From Candidatus Kaiserbacteria bacterium (GTDB lineage: Bacteria > Patescibacteriota > Minisyncoccia > Phycocordibacterales > UBA918): 61,891 bases of DNA. Positions within the stretch are counted from its first letter, which is position 1. Every line of letters begins with the position of its first letter. The notes beneath the pieces were generated by a model. That model saw nothing but the letters and a program-made list of their open reading frames with translations, had not been told where the DNA came from and did not search any database. Below are positions 10,957 through 36,163 of the stretch, piece by piece. The stretch covers positions 1 to 61,891 of the forward strand of contig JANPGF010000057.1 of NCBI GenBank assembly GCA_031423775.1, read 5' to 3'. A program made the position numbers and the translations under genes.

Positions 10957-10961
10957 GAGAT

Positions 10962-19268: not shown

Positions 19269-20327
19269 ATGAAACTCCTCATCATTACCCAAGTTCTCGA
19301 TACCGAACACCCAATTTTGGGGTTTTTTCACCGGTGGGTGGAGGAATTTGCGAGTCAGGTTGATGAGGTTCAGGTCATTGCTTTGCAGGTAGGAACCTAT
19401 GACCTTCCACCCAACGTACAGGTTTACTCGCTAGGCAAGGAAAGCGGCGCTAATCGCCTAAAATATCTCTGGCGTTTTTATACGTATAGCTGGCAACTTC
19501 GTCATTCGTATGATGAGGTATTTGTTCATATGAATCAACAGTACGTGCCGCTCGGGTACCCACTTTGGAAACTGTTGAGGAAGCGTATCGGGCTCTGGTA
19601 TGCCCATGGGGCAGTTAGCCGCTCGCTTGAAATTGCTGTGCGGTTGGCTGATGTCGTATTCACGTCAACTCCCCAAGGTCTGCAGATTGATACCCCAAAG
19701 CGAGTGATCGTGGGGCAGGGGATTGATTTTGCTCATTTTGCTCCTGCTTCAGCAGAACGACCAATGCGGGCGACTCTTGAACTGATAACTGTCGGTCGTA
19801 TTTCAGCTAGCAAAAATCTGGCTACACTCCTCGCCGCATGCTCGCTGTTGCAGCTGCAGGGGGTTTCTTTTCATTTTTCAATTATCGGTACGCCCTTAAC
19901 CGAAGTAGATATTCAGTATGAAAAAAACTTGCATCACTATTGTGCCGAAAATCACCTCATTGATTCAGTATCATGGATTGGTGGTGTGAATCAAGTCAAG
20001 TTGCCAGCGTATCTTCAGCAGGCTGATATTTTTATCCACGATGGGGCAACTCAAAGTCTCGATAAGGTGCTCCTCGAGGCGGTAGCAGCTGGATGTGTAG
20101 TGCTGTCTTCAAATGCGGCGTATACGGCGCTCACATTGCCACTTGCGCCACAAAATCTGTTTATGAGTACTGACAGTAGTGCTTTGGCAGCTCGCATTAT
20201 TGAATGCAGTCAGATGTCAGAAAGCGTAAGGTCTGAAGTTATGTTACCAATTCGTCAAGTCATACAAAAAGAACATAGTATCCAGGGGCTAATCGCAAAA
20301 ATAGTCGCACACTATATATGTGTATAA
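19269..20327 (+). CDS. Glycosyltransferase (GT-B, GT4-like)
   Basis: MKLLIITQVLDTEHPILGFF... N-domain, and the C-domain has the ...IFIHDGATQSLDKVLLEAVAAGCVVLSS pattern. Confidence 0.65.
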   Translation: MKLLIITQVLDTEHPILGFFHRWVEEFASQVDEVQVIALQVGTYDLPPNVQVYSLGKESGANRLKYLWRFYTYSWQLRHSYDEVFVHMNQQYVPLGYPLWKLLRKRIGLWYAHGAVSRSLEIAVRLADVVFTSTPQGLQIDTPKRVIVGQGIDFAHFAPASAERPMRATLELITVGRISASKNLATLLAACSLLQLQGVSFHFSIIGTPLTEVDIQYEKNLHHYCAENHLIDSVSWIGGVNQVKLPAYLQQADIFIHDGATQSLDKVLLEAVAAGCVVLSSNAAYTALTLPLAPQNLFMSTDSSALAARIIECSQMSESVRSEVMLPIRQVIQKEHSIQGLIAKIVAHYICV

Positions 20328-20390
20328 GTCAATATGATGTATCTATAGCAAAGTGATAGCATATAAATATATAAGCGTAATATATTAAGT

Positions 20391-21194
20391 ATGAGTTACC
20401 AGTTCGTATTAAAAAGTGCATTGAACCGTCGATATTCGTTCGGTCTGAAGGTGGTAGTAATGATTTTAATATTAGCAGGATTAAGTTTTGTGTTTGATTC
20501 CTCGAGTGCATTTGCATCAGAAACAGAAAAAAATTACTGTTCAACATCAGAAAAAAATAAACAAGATTTACCACTCGAACTACACAGCCAACTTCAGCAG
20601 TATGTTGGCATTACTGATGCTAATCAGATTGGGCTAGGTATAACTGGTGATATGACAATATCTCTGTTGGTGAAACCAACAACACTGTCTGGGAATATGA
20701 CTTTAGTGTCAAAATGGCAGCATGTAGCTAAAACATCCTACCTGCTATTTATTGAACAGGGTAATCTCGGAATTGCCTTAAATTCTTCAGAAAGTGGTTT
20801 TGGTTACAAAGTCTTTTATGCGCCATATACAAAAAATGCAAATGAATGGACACATGTAGCAATGGTTTATACTGCAGCGAGTGGGACAGTTGAATTTTTT
20901 ATTAACGGTGTATCGGTAGGTAAGTCTGCCGACTATGCAATGCCGACCAGCATCGCTAATTCGCAAGCCAATTTTATGATTGGATCTCGAGAAAATCTCG
21001 ATACATTTTTTGATGGAAAAATCGATGATGTTCGTATTTGGAGCCGCGCTATGTCAAAAGGTCAAGTTAACCAACTATATACACATCCGAAGAAGTTTAG
21101 TGGTGATAATTATCGTCTACAAGGATATTGGAAATTTAATGATGGTTTAAAAGATGAATCTGCAAATAGCAACAATCTTTCGATTGTTCTCTAA
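20391..21194 (+). CDS. Membrane-anchored LamG / concanavalin-A-like lectin domain protein
   Basis: N-terminal TM (VVVMILILAGLSFVF). WTHVAMVY...FFDGKIDDVRIWSRAMS is a typical LamG-3 jelly-roll signature. The DNA is AT-rich. Confidence 0.65.
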   Translation: MSYQFVLKSALNRRYSFGLKVVVMILILAGLSFVFDSSSAFASETEKNYCSTSEKNKQDLPLELHSQLQQYVGITDANQIGLGITGDMTISLLVKPTTLSGNMTLVSKWQHVAKTSYLLFIEQGNLGIALNSSESGFGYKVFYAPYTKNANEWTHVAMVYTAASGTVEFFINGVSVGKSADYAMPTSIANSQANFMIGSRENLDTFFDGKIDDVRIWSRAMSKGQVNQLYTHPKKFSGDNYRLQGYWKFNDGLKDESANSNNLSIVL

Positions 21195-21247
21195 TTAAAG
21201 GCTAACACATTAAACATACAACACCATACGATTAAGTATGGTGTTGT

Positions 21248-22072
21248 ATGTTTAATTTCTGTTATAATGCAGCTGCAAAATACTTTGGCATGCACTTACT
21301 CTTTATCTTTTCACCTAAAATTGCTTGGCAGCTGTCCGGCAAGTCAGCCATAGCTGCTTTGCGAATCTGTTTGCTAATGTGGTTATTTATCTTTAGTAGG
21401 AAACTATTACGTAGCATTGATGATTTTAAGATATGTGGTGAGTATAATGGTATGCCAATCGTTTTATATCTCAGATCACTAATGGATGTAGGTGTACTGC
21501 TTGAAGTATTTGTGGATAAAGAATACTCCTGGTGTCCAGTCAGCAATCCTCAGGTTATTATTGACCTAGGTGCACATTTTGGTGACACCGTTTTGTATTA
21601 CCATGCTCTTTTCCCAACTGCAAAAATTATTGCAGTTGAGCCGTCGGCTGAAAATTATGAACGTTTAGTTAAACATGTAGGTCATATTCATAATGTTACA
21701 TTAGTTCACGCTGCAATCGGTCAGGTTGATGGGGAGGTTGTTTTGCATCTCATGTCAAATTCTCTTGGTCATTCAACCTCAAATCGCGCAGGATCCGATT
21801 CAATGATTACTGTACCTCAATTGTCATTGGCTAGTTTATTGCAATTAAATGATATAATAAAAGCTGATTTAATTAAATTTGATATTGAGGGGGCAGAATT
21901 TAGTTTATTTAATCAATCACAGCCAGAAATATTTGCTAATGCTTATATTGGTGAAGTTCATAATGATTTAAACGATAAAAAATTACCGCCAGTGGAGAAT
22001 TGGTTTACTGAATTTAAACTTTCCAGTCAACCTATAAAGGAAAATAGATTTTTATTAAAAGCGTTTCGTTAA
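21248..22072 (+). CDS. FkbM-family methyltransferase
   Basis: IIDLGAHFGDTVLYY, AVEPSAENYERL and IKFDIEGAEFSLF. The start codon is uncertain. Confidence 0.7.
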   Translation: MFNFCYNAAAKYFGMHLLFIFSPKIAWQLSGKSAIAALRICLLMWLFIFSRKLLRSIDDFKICGEYNGMPIVLYLRSLMDVGVLLEVFVDKEYSWCPVSNPQVIIDLGAHFGDTVLYYHALFPTAKIIAVEPSAENYERLVKHVGHIHNVTLVHAAIGQVDGEVVLHLMSNSLGHSTSNRAGSDSMITVPQLSLASLLQLNDIIKADLIKFDIEGAEFSLFNQSQPEIFANAYIGEVHNDLNDKKLPPVENWFTEFKLSSQPIKENRFLLKAFR

Positions 22073-22082
22073 AATTTTATTT

Positions 22083-22715
22083 ATGAGTATTGCAGAAGCT
22101 TCAATTATTCGAGGACGTGAGTATACACTACTCTCAGGAATGACTTTGGATGGTGTAATTTTAGATGTTGGGGGAGGGAGAAGGTCCGGTTATCATGAGT
22201 TAATCAAAGGGAATCATTCGTTTTATGTAATTAATCTTGATCCTGGTTGTGATCCAGATGCTTTTGTAGATATCGAAAAACCTTTTCCAATTGAGAGTGA
22301 AAAGTTTGATCATGCTATCTGCTTAAATGTAATGGAACACATTTTCGAATTCGATCATGTATTTCGTGAGCAGTTACGTTGTGTAAAAAAGGGCGGTACG
22401 TTAATTTTTGCCACACCAATGGTTTACCATATCCATGGTTCGCCAGATGACTATTTGCGATATACAGCATCGGCATATCGACGGTTGGCAGAAAAGTATA
22501 ATTGCAAAATTATTTTAATCGAACCTATAGGTACAGGAATTTGTTCATTAATTTTTCAAACTATTGAAGGTGGAATTCCAAGAGGATTCTTAAGAAGAAT
22601 TGGTAAGTCTATTGCTGTAAATTGTGATTTTGTTTTAAATAAAATTTCTAAAAAATATAGAATTCTTACAGAAAGAGTACCTCTGGGCTATTTTGTTATT
22701 TTAGAAAAGAACTAA
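22083..22715 (+). CDS. Class I SAM-dependent methyltransferase
   Basis: ILDVGGGRRSGY (motif I) and LNVMEHIFEF...VKKGGTLIF (Methyltransf_11-like). Confidence 0.7.
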   Translation: MSIAEASIIRGREYTLLSGMTLDGVILDVGGGRRSGYHELIKGNHSFYVINLDPGCDPDAFVDIEKPFPIESEKFDHAICLNVMEHIFEFDHVFREQLRCVKKGGTLIFATPMVYHIHGSPDDYLRYTASAYRRLAEKYNCKIILIEPIGTGICSLIFQTIEGGIPRGFLRRIGKSIAVNCDFVLNKISKKYRILTERVPLGYFVILEKN

Positions 22716-22811
22716 TCGTAATATTTAAACCGAGGCTAATGTTTATTGTAGTAGTTAAATAACTATTTCATGAATTGCAGCGTTATATACAGCGAAACTT
22801 ATTAGACTGAT

Positions 22812-23951
22812 ATGAAACTGTATTACGTCGTTAATGCTCGGCTGCCGAATGAAAAGGCGCATGGGATTCAGATTGCGAAAACGTGTGAGTCCTTTATAGA
22901 GGCGGGGAAGGAGGTCGTTCTTGTTGTGCCTAATCGTCAGCACGTGTCTCAAAGTATGCAGGAATTTTATGGGCTACGTACCGCAGTGCCGATTGTGTAT
23001 TTACCATGTATTGATTTATATACAAAAGGTCGGTTTGGTTTTTTCCTCAGCTCACTCTCGTTTATTACGAGTTATCTGGTGTATTTCATCATAAAAATTG
23101 TACGAGATGAAAAGTTCGTTTTCTATAGTGTTGATATGGATACCTTTTCTATGACACTGCTTGCGCTTCTGCCACGACGTTTTTTCTCTGAATTACACGG
23201 TGCGCGCAAACCAAATCTAGCAACGAATCTTTTTTTTAAATGGAGTGCCGGTATTATCGCCATTAACACTGCAGTACAAGAGGTGGTGCGTGAAAAATTC
23301 TCGCAGACTGTGCCAGTGTTGGTAGAGCCAAACGGTGTAGATGTGGCGGCGTTTGATATTGGAATGTTGCAGACTAGAGCGCGTACGACTATTGGTTTGC
23401 CGGATTTGGACGGTAAACCAATGGCACTTTTTGTGGGTAGATTTTATGGGTGGAAAGACGTGGGGATTTTAATCGAGGCAGCAACTGTTGCGCCAGATAT
23501 TCAGTGGTATGTGATTGGAGGGAGCGAAGCAGATTTTCTCCGGGTGACTGGACTCACCGCCGTTCCCTCAAATTTAAAAATTTGTGGTGACAAACCTGCT
23601 CGCGAGGTACCACTTTGGGTGGCGGCATCAGACACGGTTCTAGCACTCGGGACACAAAAAAATATTGACTCGTGGCGGTTTACGTCTCCGATGAAAGTGT
23701 TTGAATATATGGCTTCGAAACGGCCGATTGTGGCCAGTCGGACGCCTGCCCTCCTGAGTATTTTGAACGAAAGTGAGGTATACTTTTACACGCCTGATGA
23801 CGCAGCTGACTTGGCTGCTAAGGTACGAGACGCAATTGCGCACAAGCGATCTGACGTAACGGCTCTCGCTCATGCCAAGGCGCTCACTCATGCCTGGGAC
23901 AAGCGAGCTGCGCGTATTCTTGGATTTATCGACCAAACCCGTAACATTTAA
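22812..23951 (+). CDS. Glycosyltransferase, GT4 family
   Basis: MKLYYVVNARLPNEKAHGIQIAKTCE N-domain. C-domain ...PMKVFEYMASKRPIVASRTPAL. Confidence 0.75.
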   Translation: MKLYYVVNARLPNEKAHGIQIAKTCESFIEAGKEVVLVVPNRQHVSQSMQEFYGLRTAVPIVYLPCIDLYTKGRFGFFLSSLSFITSYLVYFIIKIVRDEKFVFYSVDMDTFSMTLLALLPRRFFSELHGARKPNLATNLFFKWSAGIIAINTAVQEVVREKFSQTVPVLVEPNGVDVAAFDIGMLQTRARTTIGLPDLDGKPMALFVGRFYGWKDVGILIEAATVAPDIQWYVIGGSEADFLRVTGLTAVPSNLKICGDKPAREVPLWVAASDTVLALGTQKNIDSWRFTSPMKVFEYMASKRPIVASRTPALLSILNESEVYFYTPDDAADLAAKVRDAIAHKRSDVTALAHAKALTHAWDKRAARILGFIDQTRNI

Positions 23952-23955
23952 TTTC

Positions 23956-24585
23956 ATGAGAAAACTGACAAGTGCACCGATGGATGCGTTTTACCGAGCA
24001 AATGCGACAGATGCCAAAGTGCTGGATGTGGGGTCAGCTGGTGGTCGTAACAAAGAATATTTTCCGAATAGTCTTACAGTTGATTTGTTTCCTGATAATA
24101 ATCCGGACGTGGTGGCAGATGCACATGATTTACCCTTTGCAGATGCCTCGTACGATACGATTGTGTGTAAAGAAGTGCTTGAACATGTAAAGCGGCCACA
24201 AGTCGTGATTGATCAATTCCATCGCGTGCTCACCCCGGGCGGAAAACTCATTCTCTCGACCCGATTTCTCTTTCCTATTCATGAGGCTCCTCATGATGGA
24301 TTCCGCTTTACGAAATACGCCCTCCTCGATTTATTTAAAGATTGGAAAGAAGTGAAAATTATTGACGAAGCTGATCCAATTTTAACGATTGTAATTTTGA
24401 TTGATCGAATGATTTATCAATCAGATTTCCGTTTTAATAAAATCTCTAAAGGGTTACTCGTCTTGATTACGTACCTCATTTTGCCATTCCGTCATTTGTT
24501 ACTACGGCAGTATGGTGATGTACGAAAAAGCCAGCCAGTTGATTCTGCGTTTACGACCGGATACTACGTAGTTGCCAAGAAATAA
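23956..24585 (+). CDS. Class I SAM-dependent methyltransferase with hydrophobic C-terminal segment
   Basis: Internal start MRKLTS. VLDVGSAGG, ADAHDLPFADASYDTIVCKEVLEHV and LTPGGKLILS. Confidence 0.7.
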   Translation: MRKLTSAPMDAFYRANATDAKVLDVGSAGGRNKEYFPNSLTVDLFPDNNPDVVADAHDLPFADASYDTIVCKEVLEHVKRPQVVIDQFHRVLTPGGKLILSTRFLFPIHEAPHDGFRFTKYALLDLFKDWKEVKIIDEADPILTIVILIDRMIYQSDFRFNKISKGLLVLITYLILPFRHLLLRQYGDVRKSQPVDSAFTTGYYVVAKK

Positions 24586-24595
24586 GTAAACGGCG

Positions 24596-24603
24596 CCCCC
24601 CCC
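24596..24603 (+). repeat. Poly-C(8) homopolymer 18 nt upstream of the GT9 start codon
   Basis: Read directly: GGCG-CCCCCCCC-ACTCGCATTCCATCCAC-ATG. Confidence 0.95.
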
Positions 24604-24620
24604 ACTCGCATTCCATCCAC

Positions 24621-25682
24621 ATGAAAAAAGCAAAACAAACCGACGTCTGGTTTTTCGTGGGTCACAGTATTGGTGTCACACTCCTTGCTATCCATACGCT
24701 TGAAGCGGCGTATTTTGGTTTGCCAGTAAACGAACGAGGACGCTGTTTCTTGGTCATTAATGGAGATAAAACGCAACTCTATCTCGACCTGATTGATCAG
24801 TACCCACATATCACACTCGTGACGCTCAGTCGTCGCAGTATGCCAGATTTAATTCGCATTCTAGCTCGTTCTATTGGTAGACGGCAGGTAGTGCTCCATC
24901 CGTTATCGTTTGGTTCAGTGCATCCGCTTCATGCGCTCTTAACACTCGCCATTACCTGTCTGCACCCGCGTAGTCGATCGGTGGTTCTTGATGAAAGGTC
25001 GTGGTATAACTGGTTTTGGTTTACTGATGTCTTGCCGCAGAAACTCGATCAATCGATTTTTACGTCGATGGAAGAGGCAGTAATACATTGTGAAATCAAA
25101 GTTACCGCGAGACATCCACAGTTACTCCACGCGGTAACTCCAGTTCATTCGGCATTGGCAAAGGTGGGGAAGCCATACATTGTCGTCCATCCGTTTGCCG
25201 CAAATCCGATTCGTTCATTACCAAAAGAACGCTGGGAGGATATCTTTGATTTCATTACGAGTACGTACCCTGATCATCAGTTAGTAATTTCAGGCGGGCC
25301 GTCTGATCGTGCCGTGGCATTGGCCTTTATTCGACCAAGCTATAAAAATGTCTTTTATACTGAAGATATTATCACTACTTTTTTGCCAAAAATTGGTCTG
25401 ATTGATAATACTGCCCTGTACGTAGGTGTAGATACAGGACCAACCCATCTGGCTGCTCATTTGGGTGTTCCTACCATTGTGATCGGGAATAACTCAAATC
25501 CGTGTTGGCTACCAACGTATAATCCAGAAGTTACCATCCTGATGCACACTGAACATTGTACGTGTACGAATGACAAAGGCGGGAATTGTCGAGAGACGGT
25601 AGACGGAAAAGTGTACTACCGCTGCATGATAGAAATTACTCAAGAAGAAATTAAACAGCATATAGCGGCCCGATTAGCATAG
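24621..25682 (+). CDS. Glycosyltransferase family 9 (heptosyltransferase-like)
   Basis: VVHPFAANPIRSLPKERW, LVISGGPSDR and LYVGVDTGPTHLAAHLGVPTIVIG are canonical GT9 motifs. Confidence 0.8.
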   Translation: MKKAKQTDVWFFVGHSIGVTLLAIHTLEAAYFGLPVNERGRCFLVINGDKTQLYLDLIDQYPHITLVTLSRRSMPDLIRILARSIGRRQVVLHPLSFGSVHPLHALLTLAITCLHPRSRSVVLDERSWYNWFWFTDVLPQKLDQSIFTSMEEAVIHCEIKVTARHPQLLHAVTPVHSALAKVGKPYIVVHPFAANPIRSLPKERWEDIFDFITSTYPDHQLVISGGPSDRAVALAFIRPSYKNVFYTEDIITTFLPKIGLIDNTALYVGVDTGPTHLAAHLGVPTIVIGNNSNPCWLPTYNPEVTILMHTEHCTCTNDKGGNCRETVDGKVYYRCMIEITQEEIKQHIAARLA

Positions 25683-25786
25683 ATATCTTTGTTTAATGTA
25701 TGGCCACGTCTGCCTAATAAAATAAATTGTTCGGAGGATGTGCTACTTTGTGCTATGATGTCGCAAATTATTGCTGAAGTCCATGT

Positions 25787-27847
25787 ATGCATAAAAGCTT
25801 TTATCGACCTGACATCGATGGTTTGCGCGCCATCGCAATAATCGCTGTTGTACTTTTCCATGCAAAATTGTTTGGTTTTTCAGGTGGGTTTGTTGGTGTT
25901 GACATTTTCTTTGTTATTTCTGGTTTTTTAATTACTTCCATTTTACAACGTGAACTCGAATTAGGAACTTTTTCATTTTTGCAGTTTTGGGCACGTCGAA
26001 TAAGGCGGATTTTCCCGGCACTTATAACGGTAATACTTGCAACGTTTGTTGTTGCAAATTTGTTTCTATTATTCCCTCAAGATTTTCTAAATTTTGGCAG
26101 ATCTTTACTTTTACAGAGTCTGTTTCTATCGAACTTATTTTTTTTACAACAACAAGGTTATTTTGCTGGACCAGCTGAAACATCCCCGTTATTACATACC
26201 TGGACACTCTCAGTTGAAGAACAGTTCTATATTATTTTGCCCTTCCTTTTATATTATGTACGGAAAATTTTTAAAAAAAGAGTACCTCTAGTGTTATGTT
26301 TGATAGGCATAGTTTCATTTGCAGTCAACATATATTTGGTACATTTTGCGCCAGGAAATAACTTTGCAGTACCATTTATACCAAATATTTGGGGTGGAGC
26401 AATTAACAGTACGGCCGCCTTTTTTTTGTTACCATCTCGGATTTGGGAATTTATGATTGGAGCTCTCATTACTCAGTTGCCAACAGTAATCAATATTTCA
26501 AAAAGAGTAATTGAAATACTGAGTGTAGTGGGTGTACTAGCGATTGGGTATGCAGTGACTCAGTTTAATAGTGGAACACTATTCCCTGGAGTGAATGCTT
26601 TACTCCCAGTGCTGGGTGCTGCTGCAATTATTATAGCGGGTACATATCGGGTGACGTTTGTAAGTAAAGTACTTTCTTTACCAGCGTTTGTTTGGGTTGG
26701 GCTGATTTCATATCCGCTCTATTTATGGCATTGGCCAACTTTAGTATTTGCTCGAATCATATTTGGTTCCTTGTCTACAATACAGCTCATTCTCCTGGTG
26801 GCGATTTCAGTTGGTATGGCATGGTTAACCTATAAGTATATCGAGGCGCCTTTTCGTGAGAAAAGATTTCTTTCTGGATCTGTACAGATACTAGTTGCAG
26901 GTTTTTGTTGCTTGTTAGTGATGGGGATGTCCGGGTATATGATTAGATTTAGTGATGTTTCTTCTCGGGTGCCAGATTATGCGATTGATTTTAGTGGTCT
27001 AGCTTTAAAACAAGGTCCTCGGTATATAGAGTGTAATCGGACAAAAACATCCACAACTATTCTGCGAGACGGTCCGTGTTTATTGGGTAGTGAAAATAGT
27101 GAGGTCTCGTTTGTTCTGTGGGGAGACAGTCATGCCGGCGCTATACTAGATACGGTTGACACTTTAGCTAAACAAAATCATGTGAGAGGCGCTGCTTTTA
27201 ATAGCGGTGATTGTATACCAATAATTGGTGTCTCACGATTTCCTGTTCGGGATGAGTGTCAGGCAATCAAGCAGCAGGCACTATCGTATATTCAAAAGCA
27301 TGATATCAAACATGTATTTCTCGTTGCGCGGTGGAATTCATATGTAGGAGAGGGTTCTACTGGGCCTATTATAGATATCTATTCGCCTGGTGTTTCAATG
27401 GCAGACTCTGAGAGAGTATTTACCGATCGCTTTGATGATATGTTACGCACTTGGACTGAGGATGGTCGTGCTATTACAATTTTAAAACAAGTGCCCGAGT
27501 TTTCACATTTTAATCAGCGTGATGCCTTTTATCAGTCAGTGAGAGATAAAATAGCTGTACCTATTTCCAATCAACCGTTTCATGACCATGAAAAGTACGC
27601 AGCATTTACCGATAAAATATTTTCTCAATTTGCCCAGCGATATAACGTGTCAATTATTGATCCGGCTGAAACTTTTTGTACAATTGTAAGTGGATGTAGA
27701 TTCTACACAGATACTACTATTCTTTATGAAGATGATAATCATCTTAATTTTACAGGTGCAAACCTGTTGGCTCCTCAGTTGCAAAGTTTCTTTGATTCGG
27801 TAAGTATAGAATCGAGTTCCTCGCCTAAACTTATTAAGTCAGTATAG
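25787..27847 (+). CDS. Acyltransferase family 3 (OafA/OatA-like) membrane protein with C-terminal SGNH domain
   Basis: RPDIDGLRAIAIIAVVLFH start, about 10-11 TM helices, and a C-terminal FVLWGDSHAG (SGNH block I). Confidence 0.85.
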   Translation: MHKSFYRPDIDGLRAIAIIAVVLFHAKLFGFSGGFVGVDIFFVISGFLITSILQRELELGTFSFLQFWARRIRRIFPALITVILATFVVANLFLLFPQDFLNFGRSLLLQSLFLSNLFFLQQQGYFAGPAETSPLLHTWTLSVEEQFYIILPFLLYYVRKIFKKRVPLVLCLIGIVSFAVNIYLVHFAPGNNFAVPFIPNIWGGAINSTAAFFLLPSRIWEFMIGALITQLPTVINISKRVIEILSVVGVLAIGYAVTQFNSGTLFPGVNALLPVLGAAAIIIAGTYRVTFVSKVLSLPAFVWVGLISYPLYLWHWPTLVFARIIFGSLSTIQLILLVAISVGMAWLTYKYIEAPFREKRFLSGSVQILVAGFCCLLVMGMSGYMIRFSDVSSRVPDYAIDFSGLALKQGPRYIECNRTKTSTTILRDGPCLLGSENSEVSFVLWGDSHAGAILDTVDTLAKQNHVRGAAFNSGDCIPIIGVSRFPVRDECQAIKQQALSYIQKHDIKHVFLVARWNSYVGEGSTGPIIDIYSPGVSMADSERVFTDRFDDMLRTWTEDGRAITILKQVPEFSHFNQRDAFYQSVRDKIAVPISNQPFHDHEKYAAFTDKIFSQFAQRYNVSIIDPAETFCTIVSGCRFYTDTTILYEDDNHLNFTGANLLAPQLQSFFDSVSIESSSSPKLIKSV

Positions 27848-27949
27848 ATTGAATAATTGCCGCTCACCTATGAGTAAGCATTGAGACATGGTACGATAAA
27901 ATGTCAATACTGTATCAAGTAGTGGAGTGTACTATAATCGTCAGTACGT

Positions 27950-28516
27950 ATGGCTTCACTTGATACTTATATGGCTGAGGCACTGGCGGTTTTTGCAGCT
28001 GTTGCGGCTGACGCTGAAACGCAGGCGGCCTGGACAAAAGCTCGTGACGTTATGTTAGATGCTCTAAAGGCTGGAAAGACGATTTTTGTTGCCGGTAATG
28101 GTGGGAGTGCGGCTGATGCACAACATTTTGCAGCGGAACTCACCGGCCGCTTTAAAGCGGAACGACGTTCGTGGCCTGGAATTGCGCTCACGGTAGATAC
28201 GTCAGCCTTAACTTCTATCGGAAACGATTATGGTTTTGTCCGCGTGTTTTCGCGTCAGCTTGAAGGGCTCGGCCGCGAGGGAGATGTACTCGTGGTGATT
28301 TCAACAAGTGGAAACTCGGCAAACCTCGTACATGCGAGTGTGGTGGCGCAGCAAAAAAAGATGTCGGTTATTGGACTTCTCGGTCGTGATGGGGGAGTAC
28401 TCAAGGAATTTGTCGATGTTCCCGTGATTGTGCGCGCGAGCGTGACCGCTCATATTCAAGAAGTCCATTTACAGATGTATCACTGCTGGTGTGTCGCCGT
28501 TGACGAGCTAGCATGA
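27950..28516 (+). CDS. gmhA: Sedoheptulose-7-phosphate isomerase (SIS domain)
   Basis: FVAGNGGSAADAQHFAAELTGRF and VISTSGNS. Confidence 0.85.
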   Translation: MASLDTYMAEALAVFAAVAADAETQAAWTKARDVMLDALKAGKTIFVAGNGGSAADAQHFAAELTGRFKAERRSWPGIALTVDTSALTSIGNDYGFVRVFSRQLEGLGREGDVLVVISTSGNSANLVHASVVAQQKKMSVIGLLGRDGGVLKEFVDVPVIVRASVTAHIQEVHLQMYHCWCVAVDELA

Positions 28517-29490
28517 ACAAGGAATTAATTACACAAAAACTTGCAGACGTTACTTCTCTCCGTATCGGGGTAATTGGTGATTTAATGCTCGACACGTACA
28601 CCTATGGCCGAGTTGATCGTATTTCCCCTGAAGCACCGATTCCGATTTTGCAGATTGAAAGTGAAATGGCTGTACTCGGTGGAGCGGGAAATGTGTATGC
28701 TAATTTAGTTACGCTAGGAGTGAATACCATTATGATGGGTTCTGTAGGAGCTGACACATTAGGAATTAAACTTATCGATTTGCTTCTGACTGACACTGCT
28801 AAGGCCGTGCCACACCATATTGTGGTCGATCGAAACAAGCCAACCATTAACAAGCAGCGGATTGTTGCGGGGACACAACAGCTCCTCCGCATTGATACCG
28901 AAAATACCGCAACGTTGGATGATGCGCTCACGGATACGCTTATTAGCGGTATCCCAGTATATTTTGCAGGTGTAACCGCTATTTGTGTGGCTGATTATGG
29001 AAAGGGATTTATGACCAAGCGACTCGCTGAAGCGGTCATTTCTTACGGTATGGCCAATCGTATTCCGGTTGTTGTCGATACCAAACCAAAAAATATTGAT
29101 TTTTATCACCACTGCACGCTCATGACGCCAAACGAAGGGGAGCTCATGCAGATGACGGTTTCCGGTACAGTCGCTGAACGCGCACAAGCGCTCGCCCGTG
29201 CGACTGAATCGAATGTGCTCGTGACGCGTGGGGGTAACGGTATGTTATATGCTGACGTGCGGAACGAGTCATCCAATTTCTCACTCCCTAGTTTCGCGAC
29301 TGATGTACGAGATGTTTCCGGTGCGGGGGACACCGTCGTCGCCTTTGCTGTGGTTGGTTTGGCATTGGGGCTTGGTATGGAGGATGCGGTTACTCTCGCA
29401 AATCATGCCGCCGCAGTGTCCGTATCAAAGCCACACACTGCGGTTGTAACTGTGGCTGAGCTGCTCTCGAAACTTTCGGCGGCTGAATAA
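28513..29490 (+). CDS. hldA: D-glycero-beta-D-manno-heptose-7-phosphate kinase (RfaE domain I, PfkB family), stand-alone
   Basis: VGDLMLDTYTYGRVDRISPEAPIPIL and DVSGAGDTVVA. There is a 4-nt ATGA overlap with gmhA. Confidence 0.8.
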   Translation: MNKELITQKLADVTSLRIGVIGDLMLDTYTYGRVDRISPEAPIPILQIESEMAVLGGAGNVYANLVTLGVNTIMMGSVGADTLGIKLIDLLLTDTAKAVPHHIVVDRNKPTINKQRIVAGTQQLLRIDTENTATLDDALTDTLISGIPVYFAGVTAICVADYGKGFMTKRLAEAVISYGMANRIPVVVDTKPKNIDFYHHCTLMTPNEGELMQMTVSGTVAERAQALARATESNVLVTRGGNGMLYADVRNESSNFSLPSFATDVRDVSGAGDTVVAFAVVGLALGLGMEDAVTLANHAAAVSVSKPHTAVVTVAELLSKLSAAE

Positions 29491-29494
29491 TAGT

Positions 29495-30529
29495 ATGATA
29501 CGACCTGATTCCCCGAGTAAAAAAATTGTAACGCTCGCGGCTGCTGCCCGCCTCGCACGGCAGTATCAGGCTGAGGGAAAGGTCGTGGGCTGCATCAGTG
29601 GCTCATTTGATGTGATGACAGCCATTCATTTTAAGGCGCTTGAAGAACGGTCGAAAAAATGCGATGTCTTTTTTGTACTTCTCAACAGTGATAATTCGGT
29701 GCGGTCATATAAAGGTAAAGCCAAGCCAATTTTAAACGAGAGTGAACGGAGTTATATGCTCGTTCAATCGCCGTTTGTGGCACATGTGGTTATTTTTAAT
29801 GAACTCACTCCAGTGGTGGTGCTCGAACAGCTACGACCAGATGTGTATTTAAATGTAGGGGAGTGGGGGCAGGAATGTGTTGAAAAACCAGTTGTCGAAA
29901 AGCATGGCGGCAAGGTCGTCATGTTTGACTTTGATGAGCCGGAGACCTGGTGCAAATCCACCACTCAATTAATTAAGCGCATTCAGACATCAGAAGCTAT
30001 GCAGGTAGGAAAAGCAATTTTTCTTGACCGCGATGGTGTGCTCAATGAAAATAAAAACGGCTATCTCTATCGATTTGAAGATATCGAGTGGAAGCCGTAT
30101 GTTGTATCGTCTCTGAAGGCCTTTGCGAAGGCTGGTTATAAACTGATTATAATTACCAATCAGTCGGGGATTGCGCGGGGATACTATACAGAAAAACAAA
30201 TGCATACCTTGCACCGCAAAATGAAAACTTATCTCAAAGAACAAGGAGTTGTTATTGATGCGGTGTATCATTGCCCGCACGGTCCTACTGACGGGTGTTC
30301 GTGTCGTAAGCCAGGTATTGGTATGTTATTACAAGCGGCGACTGAACAAAATTTAAACCTAAGCAAGTCTTGGTTTATTGGTGATAGTGATACTGATATT
30401 ATTGCCGGCCGTCACGCTAATGTGCACACGGTGTATATTGGAAATGAAACCGAGTATCCGGAACATACACTGCGTCCAAATCATTTTGTCACCAATCTAA
30501 AGGAGGCGCAAAAACGGATACTAACGTAA
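29495..30529 (+). CDS. Fusion: heptose-1-phosphate nucleotidyltransferase (RfaE domain II-like) + D,D-heptose-1,7-bisphosphate phosphatase (GmhB, HAD)
   Basis: N-terminal part: GCISGSFDVMTAIHFKAL...LNSDNSVRSYKGKAKPI (cytidylyltransferase fold). C-terminal part: FLDRDGVLN, ITNQSGIARGY, CPHGPTDGCSCRKPGIGM and GDSDTDI (GmhB signatures). Confidence 0.75.
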   Translation: MIRPDSPSKKIVTLAAAARLARQYQAEGKVVGCISGSFDVMTAIHFKALEERSKKCDVFFVLLNSDNSVRSYKGKAKPILNESERSYMLVQSPFVAHVVIFNELTPVVVLEQLRPDVYLNVGEWGQECVEKPVVEKHGGKVVMFDFDEPETWCKSTTQLIKRIQTSEAMQVGKAIFLDRDGVLNENKNGYLYRFEDIEWKPYVVSSLKAFAKAGYKLIIITNQSGIARGYYTEKQMHTLHRKMKTYLKEQGVVIDAVYHCPHGPTDGCSCRKPGIGMLLQAATEQNLNLSKSWFIGDSDTDIIAGRHANVHTVYIGNETEYPEHTLRPNHFVTNLKEAQKRILT

Positions 30530-30539: not shown

Positions 30540-31373
30540 ATGGCATTTAATTTGAAACAAATTTCTCGTGGTTTTGTCGGCAGAAATGCGCGACTAGTAT
30601 ATCAGACTTATGTGATGTTACTGATACAAAATCGATTTATTGCACCGGGGGCGGCCGGCACAGCTCGACTGTTACAGGCAAACATGGAGTATTCAAAACG
30701 CGCAAGCCTCCACGGTATGTTCAAGGAGATTTTCTTCGATCAAAATTATTTTATTCCGGCAACTGATGCGCCGCTTACTATTATTGATTGTGGTACTAAT
30801 ATCGGTATTTCACTTTTGTATTTTAAAACACAGGCACCAAATGCAGTGATTGTTGGGTTTGAACCAAATCCTCATACATTTGCAATCGTGTCCCGAAACG
30901 TTGCTGCAAATAATTTAGGGACGACTTTGCATAATGTTGGTCTCGGTGCTCGGCCAGAGAAGGTGACTTTTTTTACTGATGTAAAAGATTTAGCCTCCCA
31001 AAGTGCGAGTACGACCAAACAGCTTGGCACCAAGAAAAATTATACGCTCACTGAACTCGCAGTGCAGCTTGAACCCCTTTCGCAGTACATTACTGGGCCA
31101 ATTGATATCTTGAAACTAGATATCGAGGGAGCTGAAGGTGTGGTCATTGATGAGCTCGTGGCGGCTAATAAATTACACTTGGTAAAAAAACTCTTTATCG
31201 AGTATCACTTTGATGGAGTAAACACCACGTATCCTCTTGGCAAATTGCTCTCGCAATTGGAAGCGGCTGGTTTTCTCTACGTCATTAATTCGGGGATTGA
31301 ACTCCCGTACCATATTTCTGCAAAACTCAATTCAATTTGGTATAAGATTGTGGCGTGGCGACCAGAGGTATAA
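30540..31373 (+). CDS. FkbM-family methyltransferase
   Basis: IIDCGTNIGISLLYF, GFEPNPHTFAIV and LKLDIEGAEGVVI. Confidence 0.75.
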   Translation: MAFNLKQISRGFVGRNARLVYQTYVMLLIQNRFIAPGAAGTARLLQANMEYSKRASLHGMFKEIFFDQNYFIPATDAPLTIIDCGTNIGISLLYFKTQAPNAVIVGFEPNPHTFAIVSRNVAANNLGTTLHNVGLGARPEKVTFFTDVKDLASQSASTTKQLGTKKNYTLTELAVQLEPLSQYITGPIDILKLDIEGAEGVVIDELVAANKLHLVKKLFIEYHFDGVNTTYPLGKLLSQLEAAGFLYVINSGIELPYHISAKLNSIWYKIVAWRPEV

Positions 31374-31399: not shown

Positions 31400-32710
31400 T
31401 TACAAAGTAGGTCGTTTCTCTTGAGGGGTCTCATGTTCGTAATGCACAATCTCCTCGTATTCTTTAAAGAAAAACCAGACAATAAGGCCTCCGTGAAAGA
31501 TTTGTTCGGTAAAGAGAGAGGCGACGACTCCCCAAACTCCAAGCCAAGGAACAAATACCAATGTAGCAATAAGTTTAGGCACTGCGGTCAAAAAGGTGAT
31601 GTAGTAAAGCTCGCGGTGTTTGCTGTGGCTCACAAAGGTATCTGCGAGTACCTTGATTGGTAAAAAGAGAAACGCGAGACCAAGCACCTGCGCATAAAGT
31701 ACAGACGATTCGTACTTTGGAAAAACGTAATGGAATGTGAGCGGTGTGAGAAGTATATAGCAAATGGTAAAGGGGATGATGATGGCGTATAACAGCAATA
31801 ATTTGCGCGGTAAAGTTTTTTGGAGAATATGAAAAGAACGGTTCGTTAGTTTGGGTATTGCAATACTATTCATACTCTTAAACAGGTGTGTGAACTGCCG
31901 TTCAAAGTTCATAGCCAATAGGAATTCCGCGAGTGCAGCTGGTCCGGCAAACTGAAAGAGAATGAGTCGATCAAGATACGCAATACCACGACTGATGATG
32001 GCATCAATAGAGAGATGAACCGCTTCGTGGGTAAGGTGGGGATCGGTATCGTTATTCCGTTTGTAGGTACGACTCCAGAAAAAGAGTCCTAGGTTAACAA
32101 TTGCGCTAGTAAGTAAATACGCCAGGAGCAAGATAAAAACATTGTTGGTGAGACAAAGCGTAATCACCATCACGATACCAGGAACCAGAATACCGGTGAC
32201 GGTCGAGGTGCTCGTTTGTTTAAACAATTTTCGACCGTTCAAAAAAGAGATATAAATTTTTGCTGCAATGGTCACCATGGTCAAGAACGCACTGAGAGCA
32301 ATACCAAACCCAAAGAGGTAGTCTCCTTTATAGAGGTAGAAGACGCCCATCCCAGCCCCCACTAACACTGAGGGGATTCCCCAGAGGAGAGCCTGCTTAA
32401 AGCCTGCATCGAGAGCGCCATCTTTACCTTTGGCTACTGAAGTAATGGCGGCTCGACCAATCCCTATGAGGGAGAAGGTAGTCAAGAACTCACCAGTGGT
32501 GAGGATATATTGGTAGGTACCGTAGGCCTCTTTGGAGAGGAGGTTGGCAAACGCAATTGAAGTTAGGAGAGCAATGCCAGTCACTAGCACTTGGCCAATT
32601 GCCATTGCACCACCACCAAAAAAGATGTAATGGACATCTATTTTAAGTTTCTTTTCAAGCTTGGTAAGTATTGGTAAAACTTTTCGTTTCAGTGAGTTTC
32701 GTAAAGACAT
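31400..32710 (-). CDS. Polysaccharide flippase-like membrane protein (MOP/Wzx family)
   Basis: About 12-14 hydrophobic helices with a Wzx-like N-terminus (KIDVHYIFFGGGAMAIGQVL...). Start set at MSLRNSLKRK. Confidence 0.65.
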   Translation of the reverse strand: MSLRNSLKRKVLPILTKLEKKLKIDVHYIFFGGGAMAIGQVLVTGIALLTSIAFANLLSKEAYGTYQYILTTGEFLTTFSLIGIGRAAITSVAKGKDGALDAGFKQALLWGIPSVLVGAGMGVFYLYKGDYLFGFGIALSAFLTMVTIAAKIYISFLNGRKLFKQTSTSTVTGILVPGIVMVITLCLTNNVFILLLAYLLTSAIVNLGLFFWSRTYKRNNDTDPHLTHEAVHLSIDAIISRGIAYLDRLILFQFAGPAALAEFLLAMNFERQFTHLFKSMNSIAIPKLTNRSFHILQKTLPRKLLLLYAIIIPFTICYILLTPLTFHYVFPKYESSVLYAQVLGLAFLFLPIKVLADTFVSHSKHRELYYITFLTAVPKLIATLVFVPWLGVWGVVASLFTEQIFHGGLIVWFFFKEYEEIVHYEHETPQEKRPTL

Positions 32711-32833
32711 GAAATATAGTGTTGCGCAACTGCTCAAATATGTAACTTTTGGTACTATAGAAAAGTTATCAGAGGGATACAGGAGGTAGGGAGGACATTA
32801 TAATACCACAACACACAGTAATATTTATACGAT

Positions 32834-34369
32834 ATGGAAATTCAGTTCGGCAAGCAAAAATTCAATTTTGACGGTCTCTTTACGCTTGAAATGGCTAACA
32901 ATCACCAAGGAAGTGTTGAACATGGCAAAAAAATAATCCAAGAATTTGGTACGGTTGTGAGAGCTGCCGGGGTGCGGGCAGCTTTGAAATTCCAATTTCG
33001 TAACTTGGATACGTTCATCCATCCTGATTTCATCAACAGTACAACGAACAAGCATATCCCTCGTTTTCAGAGTACTCGATTGTCGAAAGAAGATTTTGCT
33101 ACGCTCGTAGCTGAAGTAAAAAAGGAGGGGATGGTCACGATGGCAACACCCTTTGACGAAGCGTCGGTGAAGCTCCATTCTGAACTTGGTATCGAAGTAC
33201 TTAAAATTGCGAGCTGTTCGGCTAAAGATTGGCCACTCCTCGAAGCGGTAGCATCAGTCGGAAAACCAGTTATTATTTCTACTGGGGGGCTCACGATGAA
33301 AGAGATCGATAACCTCGTTAGTTTCTTTGAACACCGTCTCGTCGATTTTGCCCTGATGCATTGTGTGGCAATTTACCCCACACCAAACGATAAACTTGAA
33401 CTCAATCAAATCGAGTTGATGCGCAAGCGGTATCCAAAAATTACCATTGGATTTTCAACCCATGAGGCACCAGATAATATGGATGCTATATTGATTGCCT
33501 ATGCCAAAGGTGCGCGCATTTTTGAGCGTCATGTGGGTGTCGCTACCGATGATATTAAGCTCAACGCGTATTCATCAACACCAAAGCAAATTACCGATTG
33601 GTTTGCTGCGTACAGTCGAGCAATTCAGATTTGTGGTTCAACCACCGGTCGTGTTATTGATCAGGATGAGCGAAATGATCTCCGCAGTTTGATGCGCGGA
33701 GTCTATGCTAAGCATGATATCGCTGCTGGTGAAGTGTTGGGGGAGGATGATATCTTTTACGCCTTTCCAATTCAAGATGGACAGCTTAGTAGTGGCAGTT
33801 TTAAAGTGGGTTCTACCGCTGACCGAGCGTACAAACACAATGAAGCGATTACTACGCACCTCGTAATGCAGAAATTTACGCCACGTCAGGTCATTTACCA
33901 AGCGATTCATGGTGTAAAGGGAATGTTGAACGAAGCTCATATCGCGACTGGTATAGATGCAACCGTCGAACTCTCACATCATTATGGACTCGAGAATTTC
34001 GATAAGGTGGGAGCGGTGATTGTGGATTGTATCAATCGTGAGTATTGTAAGAAACTAATTATCCAGTTACCTGGCCAGAAACACCCGTATCACTTCCACA
34101 AGAAGAAGGAAGAAGCGTTCCAGGTGCTTTACGGAGAGGTAACGCTTGACCTGGAAGGACGAGAGCGCGTTCTCCATCCTGGTGATGTCGCGATTGTACA
34201 GCGTGGTGTGAATCATGCCTTCTGGACTGAAACGGGGGTTATCTTTGAAGAAATCTCCACGACACATTTTAACGGAGATTCGTACTACGAGGATAAATCG
34301 GTAAACGATATGCCGCGAGAGTCGCGCAAGACCGTTCTCCATAACTGGGGACGTCACCAATTTGATTAA
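32834..34369 (+). CDS. NeuB-family (sialic/ulosonic acid) synthase with SAF domain and extra C-terminal cupin domain
   Basis: FTLEMANNHQGS, VLKIASCSAKDWPLL, VIISTGG and GFSTHE (NeuB TIM barrel). SAF-like AAGEVLGEDDIFYAFP. The last ~150 aa carry PYHFHKKKEE...VNHAF (lyxose/mannose-isomerase-type cupin). Confidence 0.8.
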   Translation: MEIQFGKQKFNFDGLFTLEMANNHQGSVEHGKKIIQEFGTVVRAAGVRAALKFQFRNLDTFIHPDFINSTTNKHIPRFQSTRLSKEDFATLVAEVKKEGMVTMATPFDEASVKLHSELGIEVLKIASCSAKDWPLLEAVASVGKPVIISTGGLTMKEIDNLVSFFEHRLVDFALMHCVAIYPTPNDKLELNQIELMRKRYPKITIGFSTHEAPDNMDAILIAYAKGARIFERHVGVATDDIKLNAYSSTPKQITDWFAAYSRAIQICGSTTGRVIDQDERNDLRSLMRGVYAKHDIAAGEVLGEDDIFYAFPIQDGQLSSGSFKVGSTADRAYKHNEAITTHLVMQKFTPRQVIYQAIHGVKGMLNEAHIATGIDATVELSHHYGLENFDKVGAVIVDCINREYCKKLIIQLPGQKHPYHFHKKKEEAFQVLYGEVTLDLEGRERVLHPGDVAIVQRGVNHAFWTETGVIFEEISTTHFNGDSYYEDKSVNDMPRESRKTVLHNWGRHQFD

Positions 34370-34426: not shown

Positions 34427-36163
34427 TTAGGATTCAAAAACGTCAGAATCTCGGAGGCGGAAGAGCCCTTCGTCAATGCGCCTCTGGTCGAGGTGGTGAC
34501 CGATAAAGCCAACTGAACGGGGAATAACAAATAAGGCGTTCATAAATTCCGTGTCCAAGAGCTCACTGATTTCTGCCGAGGTACATTTTTCGTATTCAAC
34601 GAGGTAATCGAGAAAAACCGCAGCAACCGCCCCATCGATATTAAGAATTAAATTAGATTTTTTCTTGGTGGTTAGTTCTGCAATTGACTGCGCAAAGGTG
34701 CTGTACGTTTTTGCAGTGAGGTCCAGGTCAGCTTGAGCCAAAAGGGCTGCAACTCGAGCGTCAGGTCGGTAGATATTGTATTTGAGATGCCCTATACCCT
34801 GTATGTGCTCACGCTTTTTGCTTGCATTTGCCACCACGTCAGCGGGCGTTAGTTTTGCTTTTACACTCTCATACCATAGTGTGGCCGCATTATTCATAGC
34901 CCCACCAAATCGATCACCAATCGTGAGGATGCCAGTTGCGAGTGAGGATACCATATCTCGGCCGGCCCGGGTGGTGATGATGGTATTTGCAGCCCCTGAA
35001 ACATGAGGTCCATGATCAATTAACTCAACAAAAATAGTGTCGGTTACTCGTACCAGTTCAGGCGACACTGTGCGACCGAGGAGTCGAGCGAGGATATGTT
35101 CAGTAAAGCTTCCTGTAGTTGTGCCGGTCACCTGTTTTGGTGCCGTGATGAGGGTGTGATGAGTATTGGCTGGTCGACCAGTCCAAATACGAGCAGTAGC
35201 GGATGTCGTGATTTTCTTTGGGAGGTGGGCGAGCTGCTCGTTAAAATCGGCAAAGGTGTCGCTGACGATAACCCCAGCGGCCCGGAGGGCGACTGATTTG
35301 GCGTTGGCTGTTTCATCAGGATTTTTTGCGAGGGCTTTGGCGTGACCAAATTGAATAACCTGATCACCTGATTCGTAGCGTCCTGCAATGTAGGCGTAGA
35401 TGGGTTTGGTAATTTCACCGTTTTGTACAGCTGCCGCTAAATCGTATTCATCAGTCCCGCCAAGTTCACCAAAGTATATGATCTGTTCGGTTTGAGGATC
35501 GGCTTCGGCTGCACGAATCCAGTCGAGTGGCGAAGTGATAGGGAAGCGATCTCCGCCATACGCGATGGCAAAACTAATGCCCGCTCCGTGCGCGGTTACC
35601 TGGTACATGATTTCATTTACCATTCCGCCTGAACTACAAATAATTGCAGTGTGGCCTAGTGTGGTGCCGAGCTCTGTCACCCGAGCGCCAGCGATACCGC
35701 CGATTGCTCCTAATTTCAAGAGCCCGGGCACGCACAGTCCAACACCAGACGGCCCTGCAATAAATTTCTGGTTAGATGTGCCATCGCCGTAAGAGCTAAT
35801 CAGTGCGAGCGCATCACGTTCTGCAACATTCTCAGCAAAAATATGGGCACCCAGTGCCTGCGGAAAATGGATAAAGAAGTCAGAGACCATACGGTACGCA
35901 CCGCTTGCAGAGGTAATATTGAGAAGGAAATCAGGCGTGAGACCGAGGAGAACCGCTTCCTCCATACTAGGAATCACCGGAACTAATATTTCTGCGTTAC
36001 CCCAAAATAGCTTTTGGCTTTTTTTGCCAACAGAGATAATGGCAAGAACGCTTGGCGTAACGCGGCCACTTGCATAATCAAAATCGAGGATTGATTGAAC
36101 AATACGTTCATGGTTACCTGCTATCAGAATGGTAGGTGTTTTAGTCCGGAGATTTTTTATCAT
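34427..36163 (-). CDS. aclA: ATP-citrate lyase large subunit (CoA-binding/phosphohistidine domain + citrate-synthase-like domain)
   Basis: [10 protein letters not shown] aligns with ACLY VQFGHAGACA (phosphohistidine loop). [45 protein letters not shown] aligns with ACLY [43 protein letters not shown]. Confidence 0.85.
   Translation of the reverse strand: [578 protein letters not shown]

Follow-up and report, generated by a model that had tools for sequence, protein, structure and literature searches.

This study concerns a cluster of heptose genes in a stretch of 61,891 nucleotides (nt), hereafter the window, from contig JANPGF010000057.1 (assembly GCA_031423775.1) of a Candidatus Kaiserbacteria bacterium, a member of the candidate phyla radiation (CPR). 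The cluster encodes a family GT9 glycosyltransferase, the sedoheptulose-7-phosphate isomerase GmhA, a stand-alone heptose kinase and one protein in which a nucleotidyltransferase is joined to the phosphatase GmhB, and it would form the sugar-nucleotide supply module of a larger cell-surface glycan island. Its features are the following:

24621–25682 (+): GT9 glycosyltransferase with a GT-B fold (PF01075, E-value 6.7e-13, C-lobe only)
27950–28516 (+): GmhA, sedoheptulose-7-phosphate isomerase, step 1 of the pathway (TIGR00441, 2.9e-57; PRK13936, 5e-60)
28513–29490 (+): stand-alone PfkB heptose-7-phosphate kinase (TIGR02198 rfaE_dom_I, 5.4e-84; PfkB, 9.2e-33)
29495–30529 (+): nucleotidyltransferase–GmhB fusion, a single open reading frame (ORF) of 344 residues (rfaE_dom_II plus NF006506)
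29495–29998 (+): HldC-like nucleotidyltransferase domain of the fusion, residues 1–168, step 4 (rfaE_dom_II, 5x9q, Foldseek 5xf2)
30008–30529 (+): GmhB domain of the fusion, HAD-IIIA type, residues 172–344, step 3 (NF006506, 2gmw, Foldseek 3l8e)

The heptose genes are co-directional and look translationally coupled. The isomerase and kinase genes overlap by 4 nt (gcATGAac), and the fusion starts 4 nt after the kinase stop, with kinase and nucleotidyltransferase in separate ORFs. An earlier note, made from the sequence alone, had described these ORFs and the 4-nt overlap together with the motifs FLDRDGVLN, ITNQSGIARGY, GDSDTD and TAIH, and ORF translation placed every one of them where it had been reported. 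Promoter and terminator scans of the window gave matches no more frequent than in shuffled sequence, and tRNA and Rfam scans gave no match.

The window also codes for SecA, Obg, GatB and MurB. Its SecA is 78% identical to Candidatus Kaiserbacteria proteins and 74% identical to those of Nomurabacteria, the closest named relatives of both the fusion and the GT9 protein are labelled ‘Patescibacteria group bacterium’, and the DNA of the window was found in freshwater sediment metagenomes. The suggestion that ADP-heptose might act here as an innate-immune agonist has no footing, since the sequence comes from a CPR bacterium of sediment.

The assignment of the isomerase, the PfkB kinase, the phosphatase and the HldC-like nucleotidyltransferase to one heptose pathway, proposed from motifs in the earlier note, was upheld by Pfam, NCBIfam and fold matches, with all NCBIfam scores of the heptose enzymes lying somewhat under the equivalog cut-offs. 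GmhA reached 193 bits on TIGR00441 (cut-off 209), and the kinase matched rfaE_dom_I over its full length (residues 11–321) with 282 bits (cut-off 345). Residues 172–328 of the fusion matched beta-heptose-1,7-bisphosphate 7-phosphatase (NF006506, 4.6e-49) with 166 bits (cut-off 178), against 137 bits on the alpha-specific model, and the same domain matched the structure 2gmw with an E-value of 5.6e-28. The GmhB motifs DxDxV, TNQSG, CRKP and GDSDTD and the Cys/His zinc loop (C260-x-H262...C268-x-C270) all occur in this domain and do not vary across the alignment. An AlphaFold2 model of the fusion, built from an alignment of 120 homologues, had a pLDDT of 95.7 and a pTM of 0.82, and its GmhB domain superposed on E. 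coli GmhB with a Foldseek TMt of 0.86–0.88 (0.86 for 3l8e).

The N-terminal half of the fusion likewise has the fold of a nucleotidyltransferase, because it superposes on HldC of B. pseudomallei (BpHldC, 5xf2) with a TMt of 0.89 and a root-mean-square deviation of 2.0 Å. At the level of fold, this answers the objection, raised in advance, that this half might be no nucleotidyltransferase at all. Residues 20–164 matched rfaE_dom_II with an E-value of 4.5e-29 and 101 bits (cut-off 181.5), and the domain matched HldC 5x9q at 1.4e-11. The ORF and domain boundaries also bear out the claim that the fusion couples the phosphatase with the nucleotidyltransferase step instead of the kinase with the nucleotidyltransferase, as in HldE, where the latter two lie on one polypeptide and not in separate ORFs as in the window.

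Although this architecture is real, the idea that it is a non-canonical peculiarity of the locus did not hold. A word-indexed search found at least 120 fused homologues of 40–87% identity and 317–356 residues, nearly all carrying both Pfam domains; query coverage was at least 90% for most of those listed and 83% at the lowest, and the names among them include Patescibacteria, Microgenomates, Sungbacteria and one ‘Deltaproteobacteria’ metagenome-assembled genome (MAG). The N-domain alone was then compared by HMMER with 1.84 billion cluster representatives (50% identity), and the best 150 were classed with phmmer as follows:

nucleotidyltransferase alone or with an unrecognised partner: 84 of the 150 nearest representatives
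nucleotidyltransferase–GmhB: 30 of 150
kinase–nucleotidyltransferase (HldE type): 27 of 150
GmhB–nucleotidyltransferase: 5 of 150
nucleotidyltransferase–GmhA: 2 of 150
kinase–nucleotidyltransferase–GmhB: 1 of 150
nucleotidyltransferase–kinase: 1 of 150

By these sequence surveys, the nucleotidyltransferase–GmhB fusion is a common and indeed the usual arrangement in CPR bacteria. In a pattern scan of contigs, most seeming full-length matches were adjacent hldE or hldC and gmhB genes in different frames, and the only true fusions among the matches listed, which did not include the window clade, were those of L001 (Saccharibacteria) and L045. The latter, from a Micrarchaeota MAG (a DPANN archaeon), is a reversed GmhB–HldC protein of 342 residues at 9974–10999 with the motif HAGH. 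Many proteobacteria have gmhB directly after hldE or hldC, and loss of the stop codon between them would yield a fused gene. Our literature search returned no relevant description of an HldC–GmhB fusion, and as far as we have seen the architecture is abundant in databases yet uncharacterised. The cross-kingdom survey of Tang et al. (2024), in the summaries available to us, sets out three architectures of heptose nucleotidyltransferase (HENase), namely mono-domain, kinase/nucleotidyltransferase and isomerase/kinase/nucleotidyltransferase (PMC11461863, PMC11573728); these share their catalytic family and pathway with the window, and a nucleotidyltransferase/phosphatase fusion is not among the three given there. 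Among freshwater CPR classes, the ADP-heptose pathway has been reported in Paceibacteria only (PMC9166423).

The GT9 protein belongs to a small family, with 40 matches in 5.8 billion clusters. Its AlphaFold2 model (pLDDT 92.7) was closest in Foldseek to WaaF (1psw, TMt 0.72, 5.8e-14), WaaC (0.70, 1.2e-12) and a Veillonella GT9, with top values spanning 0.65–0.72, and the family profile aligned with WaaC over residues 5–296 (2.5e-12). Like WaaC, WaaF and WaaQ, it has the GT-B fold and the donor site for ADP-heptose: R198 corresponds to K192 of WaaC, GVDTGPTH corresponds to SVDTGLSH, and D271, T272, G273 and H276 are conserved. On models of lipopolysaccharide (LPS) heptosyltransferases it scored only 24–34 bits (cut-offs 135–467), with matches confined to the donor lobe. 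Four cysteines (residues 313, 315, 323 and 335; nt 25557–25625), located in a C-lobe insertion before the last helix, are conserved across the family. According to DSSP analysis of the model, the N-lobe alternates beta strands and alpha helices from residue 7 and has no N-terminal beta-barrel.

Four further genes of the window enter the comparison with related loci:

25787–27847 (+): AT3 (OafA-like) membrane acyltransferase with an SGNH domain (PF01757, 2.8e-31; PF19040, 5.7e-46)
30540–31373 (+): FkbM-family methyltransferase (TIGR01444, 5.1e-23; syntenic in L081, L083 and L091)
31400–32737 (−): Wzx-like polysaccharide flippase, Polysacc_synt (PF01943, 2.6e-13)
47960–50200 (+): Wzy_C membrane protein with C-terminal tetratricopeptide (TPR) repeats (PF04932, 1.9e-16, plus TPR)

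The loci L081 (GCA_031430855.1), L083 (GCA_040384025.1) and L091, whose fusions are 68%, 62% and 49% identical to that of the window, share with it the order GT9, methyltransferases (where present), gmhA, kinase, fusion, FkbM. Within this clade the FkbM gene always stands next after the fusion, and its product is a candidate heptose or glycan O-methyltransferase. In L091, the cassette lies directly before Wzy_C-TPR and MurB. A flippase gene adjoins GT9 in L083, L084, L085, L086 and L090; the GT9s of L084–L086, which are of the Asp type discussed below, sit in a backbone of flippase, GT9, Wzy_C/TPR, MurB and SecA, and the succession GT9...Wzy_C–MurB–SecA recurs in L084, L085, L090 and L091. In its fuller form, with Obg after SecA and a set of variable glycan genes between GT9 and Wzy_C/TPR, this conserved backbone recurs in related CPR genomes (window 47960–56608; L084, L085, L090 and L091), and it is at that point, between GT9 and Wzy_C, that the variable island appears to have been inserted. 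L090 holds two GT9 paralogues (G-I-G-G and S-I-G-V); after its heptose kinase, in the place of the fusion, it encodes a secreted protein of 662 residues that weakly matches a C39 peptidase (12293–14281).

More distant CPR cassettes offer a canonical reference. L087 (GCA_964361755.1) reads TylF, GT9, cupin, PfkB kinase, fusion and HldD, and L089 holds GmhA, GT9, kinase and fusion. Both have the same nucleotidyltransferase–GmhB order as the window at 44–45% identity, with PfkB kinase and GT9 adjoining, and both lie, as the window cassette does, within a glycan cluster with flippases, GT4s and methyltransferases. Their GT9s match heptosyltransferase II over the full length (105–113 bits). They retain the HxGH motif of the nucleotidyltransferase (HFGH in L087, HVGH in L089) and a Gly-Asp pair in GT9 (GGIGD and AIGD, respectively), whereas the window clade has neither. 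In L087 HldD follows directly downstream of the fusion, whereas the cassettes of the window clade are without it.

Heptose is known above all from textbook accounts of LPS, and the earlier note had drawn attention to the lack of the 6-epimerase HldD and of any lipid A context. Both absences were confirmed within the window. The only short-chain dehydrogenase/reductase (9530–10429) scored 61 bits against an HldD cut-off of 274.6 and was rejected as a cryptic HldD; the three loci of matching gene order (L081, L083 and L091) were likewise without one, whereas the HldD of L087, serving as positive control, reached 310 bits. Given that the cassette lacks HldD, the sugar probably escapes epimerisation, and a D,D-heptose is a plausible product, for HldD is part of the canonical CPR cassettes and missing from this one. 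No lpx, kds, waaA, lpt or bam gene was detected when 54 of the 55 listed window ORFs of 150 or more residues were scanned with Pfam. One candidate for KdsB, the CTP_transf_3 protein of the KdsB superfamily at 37439–38200, was rejected in favour of PseF, on which it scored 137 bits, its scores on KdsB models being 53 bits or less. Published work describes CPR bacteria as monoderms that bear an S-layer, although their genomes have been seen to contain ‘LPS-type’ genes (PMC6146748). The proposal of a non-LPS acceptor is thus likely to be right: it is well supported by the lack of lpx and kds genes in 62 kb, and the host is a Kaiserbacteria-like member of this reportedly monoderm group.

On this basis, we favour, with a probability of roughly 0.6, a working pathway to a nucleoside-diphosphate (NDP)-D,D-heptose that supplies a surface glycan of the Wzx/Wzy_C type, with heptose passing to a non-LPS acceptor. 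GmhA would isomerise sedoheptulose-7-phosphate, the PfkB kinase would give beta-D-heptose-1,7-bisphosphate, the GmhB domain would take off the 7-phosphate, and the N-terminal domain would activate the resulting heptose-1-phosphate; the fusion of these last two steps would favour the hand-over of heptose-1-phosphate between the domains. The nucleotide would probably be ADP. Before STT stands Lys; an Arg there (STTR5) has been reported as a hallmark of CDP- and UDP-heptose-forming enzymes (PMC11461863). GT9 would then move the heptose onto its acceptor, most likely a lipid-linked oligosaccharide made by the neighbouring GT4s. This oligosaccharide would be methylated, O-acetylated or sulfated and flipped by the Wzx-like protein, after which Wzy_C-TPR would polymerise it outside the membrane or join it there to a surface protein or wall polymer. 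We infer that the nucleotidyltransferase domain and GT9 are both catalytically competent in spite of the changes described next.

Several observations weigh against this pathway. In the nucleotidyltransferase domain, HxGH is replaced by TAIH (residues 42–45, nt 29618–29629), with Thr for the first His and Ile for Gly. The loss of Gly had been seen before, and it proves to be part of a degeneration across the whole clade: among the at least 120 fused homologues, the 21 closest relatives (44–87% identity) all lack HxGH, which is present in 96 of 99 fused homologues outside the clade (the other three read HSDH, HSDH and HAGQ). TAIH occurs nine times in the clade, and the other variants are TAYH, TARH, TAMH, SGIH, AGIH, AAVN, AARH, IARH, TGRH and TGSH; the third position is thus variable (I/Y/M/V/R/S), which could reflect relaxed constraint at a dead site. 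The same clade has Ser35 where the ‘TNG’ motif has Asn. In GT9, Val19 (nt 24675–24677) aligns with Asp13 of WaaC (G18-V19 with G12-D13), a residue implicated by mutagenesis as the catalytic base and called strictly conserved (bioRxiv 10.1101/2021.06.16.448588). L090 keeps gmhA and the kinase without a nucleotidyltransferase–GmhB gene nearby. Finally, an initiating phosphoglycosyltransferase was not found in the window, either by the Pfam scans or by a relaxed scan of unannotated ORFs.

At position 19 of GT9, all 21 members of the window subclade have Val and all 7 of the most distant family members have Asp, and Glu28, His63 and His280 are conserved in the Val subclade only. In every locus where both were seen (the window, L081, L083 and L091, the last with TGRH in the fusion and S-I-G-V in GT9), a Gly-Val GT9 stands with a TAxH-type fusion. 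The Gly-Asp relatives nearest to the window GT9, those of L084–L086, have no heptose genes within 8 kb and so provide no pairing for comparison. The loss of the catalytic Asp from GT9 escaped the earlier note, as did the narrow scope of the clade marked by the degenerate motif, which in the 50%-identity library comprises one close representative (58% identity), the next standing at 42%. Compared with the E. coli-type LPS route, the window shares the four chemical steps, the SIS isomerase, the PfkB kinase, the HAD-IIIA zinc-loop phosphatase, the cytidylyltransferase-like nucleotidyltransferase and GT9, and differs in its stand-alone kinase, in the attachment of the nucleotidyltransferase to GmhB, in TAIH, in the lack of HldD from the cassette, in a GT9 that is without Asp13 and in a host that shows no LPS context.

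These changes give some weight to the view, unlikely though it is, that the N-domain is a pseudo-enzyme, so that the fusion acts as GmhB only and the dead domain is kept for folding, oligomerisation or substrate binding; heptose would then be activated by an enzyme encoded elsewhere in the genome, or the pathway would stop at heptose-1-phosphate. The loss of HxGH in every clade member, with a third position free to vary, and the change in TNG are what such a history might leave, and the Pfam match to CTP_transf_like is weak (4.5e-6), with several clade members lacking it among their precomputed domains. L090, with its isomerase and kinase alone, fits as well. Much of the domain, however, does not look abandoned. 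In the variant clade the N-domain has a mean pairwise identity of 0.58, close to the 0.63 of GmhB (canonical fusions have 0.60 and 0.61, respectively), and it is under purifying selection rather than decaying. The HldC motifs NSD, K73-G74, ELTP, Arg85 and S-T-T are kept, and His45, the fourth position of the motif, is retained in 20 of 21 members. The first position is Thr in most, an accepted variant of the superfamily, as in pantetheine-phosphate adenylyltransferase. Of the 150 nearest representatives, 23 lack HxGH, mostly at Gly (HAAH, HASH, HSSH, HANH, TAKH and others), so loss of this Gly is recurrent among HldC relatives and therefore not obviously lethal.

A further comparison is with BpHldC, a mono-domain heptose-1-phosphate adenylyltransferase (PDB 5X9Q/5XF2) for which TNG has been described as a sugar-phosphate motif along with other motifs (PMC7993394). 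Its fold, NSD, KG, ExTP and STT are shared with the window, whereas HRGH, TNG, KGG and FEHDRSTT are represented there by TAIH, ISG, NVG and ...ETWCKSTT. In the (F/L)xxGxSTT region, K-S-T-T is present and Gly is Cys or Ser; ahead of K/x-S-T-T the clade has a specific 4-residue insertion with an invariant Trp152, which looks like adaptive remodelling and not decay. Furthermore, neither the 62 kb window nor the syntenic loci hold a second heptose-1-phosphate nucleotidyltransferase, and a GT9 whose donor site is intact depends on an NDP-heptose. For these reasons, an active N-domain that feeds the surface-glycan pathway remains our preferred reading.

A more novel reading, which we consider improbable, is that the two consecutive steps have instead been rewired. 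A TxxH nucleotidyltransferase using another nucleotide or another catalysis would then be paired with a base-less GT9 acting on a phosphate or carboxylate acceptor, such as polyprenyl phosphate, a phosphorylated wall polymer or a carboxylate; with acceptors of this kind, no general base would be needed.

We regard as similarly doubtful the proposal that GT9 is a protein heptosyltransferase like TibC/AAH of the bacterial autotransporter heptosyltransferases (BAHT), which would act in the cytoplasm on an S-layer protein or pilin. TibC and AAH are ADP-heptose-dependent GT-B enzymes with a non-LPS acceptor and a Cys4 metal finger in the C-lobe, and the window GT9 would be like them in its fold, donor and kind of acceptor; C313, C315, C323 and C335 recall the finger, TibC is among the structural matches and the LPS-type catalytic Asp is absent. 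The iron finger of TibC, formed by C339, C342, C358 and C370, mediates substrate recognition (PMC4358343). The cysteine spacing in the window is nevertheless different, and the TMt values for TibC (0.52–0.56) are below those for WaaF and WaaC (0.70–0.72). Moreover, TibC and AAH have an N-terminal beta-barrel and an atypical four-stranded N-lobe, whereas the window GT9 has an ordinary Rossmann-like N-lobe and no barrel, and its gene is constantly found beside flippase and Wzy_C genes.

Ordinary synthesis of an LPS inner core by a diderm host, with lipid A and Kdo genes outside the window, is scarcely credible: GT9 and ADP-heptose genes are classically LPS genes and a KdsB-superfamily cytidylyltransferase is encoded at 37439–38200, but SecA places the contig in a Kaiserbacteria-like CPR lineage reported as monoderm, that cytidylyltransferase fits PseF far better than KdsB and lies near NeuB, GT9 matches LPS models only weakly in the donor lobe and has no Asp13, and 62 kb hold no lpx, kds or waaA.

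The heptose cassette is embedded in an island of about 40 kb with five GT4 glycosyltransferases, three FkbM, one TylF and two class-I methyltransferases, a sulfotransferase, a CysQ-like phosphatase, nonulosonic-acid genes, a nucleotide-sugar dehydrogenase, the Wzx-like flippase and Wzy_C-TPR. The Wzy_C-TPR gene lies directly upstream of MurB; Wzy_C is a family of O-antigen ligases, polymerases and O-oligosaccharyltransferases, and the protein likely performs the final glycan transfer step. The AT3-SGNH protein is probably an O-acetyltransferase for an extracytoplasmic glycan. Its gene is absent from L081 and L083 and has a GC content of 0.39, within a region (20000–28000) of 0.37–0.43 flanked by DNA of 0.45–0.50; this specificity to the window, together with the low GC, suggests that the island is mosaic and in part exchangeable.

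Further genes of the island hint at the composition of the glycan. A NeuB protein fused to a C-terminal cupin (511 residues, 32834–34369, +) and the PseF-like CMP-nonulosonate cytidylyltransferase (37439–38200, +) occupy the same stretch, so a sialic-acid-like sugar is probably also part of the glycan; a NeuB/PseF-like pair adjoins the heptose cassette in L091 as well. A sulfated surface glycan is suggested by two genes, one for a sulfotransferase (47074–47910, +) that keeps its synteny in L081 and L083, the other for a CysQ-like 3'-phosphoadenosine-5'-phosphate phosphatase (16822–17679, +). In mid-island, two genes (34427–36163, −, and 36160–37317, −) encode a two-subunit pair resembling ATP-citrate lyase or citryl-CoA synthetase/lyase, with Citrate_bind (2.8e-44) and a CoA-ligase plus citrate-synthase C-terminal domain, and this pair may be a local source of acetyl-CoA for sugar acetylation. 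A LamG/pentraxin-like protein with a concanavalin-type lectin fold and an N-terminal hydrophobic segment (20391–21194, +; syntenic in L081, L083 and L090) may be secreted and bind or carry glycan. The island also contains a CofD/YvcK family gene (44620–45621, +; PF01933, 6.2e-83), syntenic in L081. Towards the start of the window, a YkuD L,D-transpeptidase fused to an S11 D-Ala-D-Ala carboxypeptidase (5393–6958, +) is followed by a TraG/VirD4-like coupling ATPase of 770 residues (6983–9295, +).

To our knowledge, hardly any surface glycan of a CPR bacterium has been characterised. It emerges here that these bacteria commonly hold a compact heptose cassette with a nucleotidyltransferase–phosphatase fusion, an arrangement outside the three-type HENase classification as given in the available published text. 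The real interest of the window lies in the concurrent, clade-specific remodelling of catalytic signatures in two consecutive enzymes: both proteins are under selection though their hallmark catalytic residues have changed in one lineage. If both are active, the ‘essential’ HxGH of the nucleotidyltransferases and the Asp13 of GT9 are less universal than assumed, and the pair could point to a new chemistry at the donor or the acceptor; inactive, they would be conserved pseudo-enzymes in a reduced genome. Should the two steps indeed have been rewired, the outcome would be a lipid-phospho-heptose donor or a phosphodiester-linked heptose in the envelope of a monoderm, ultra-small bacterium.

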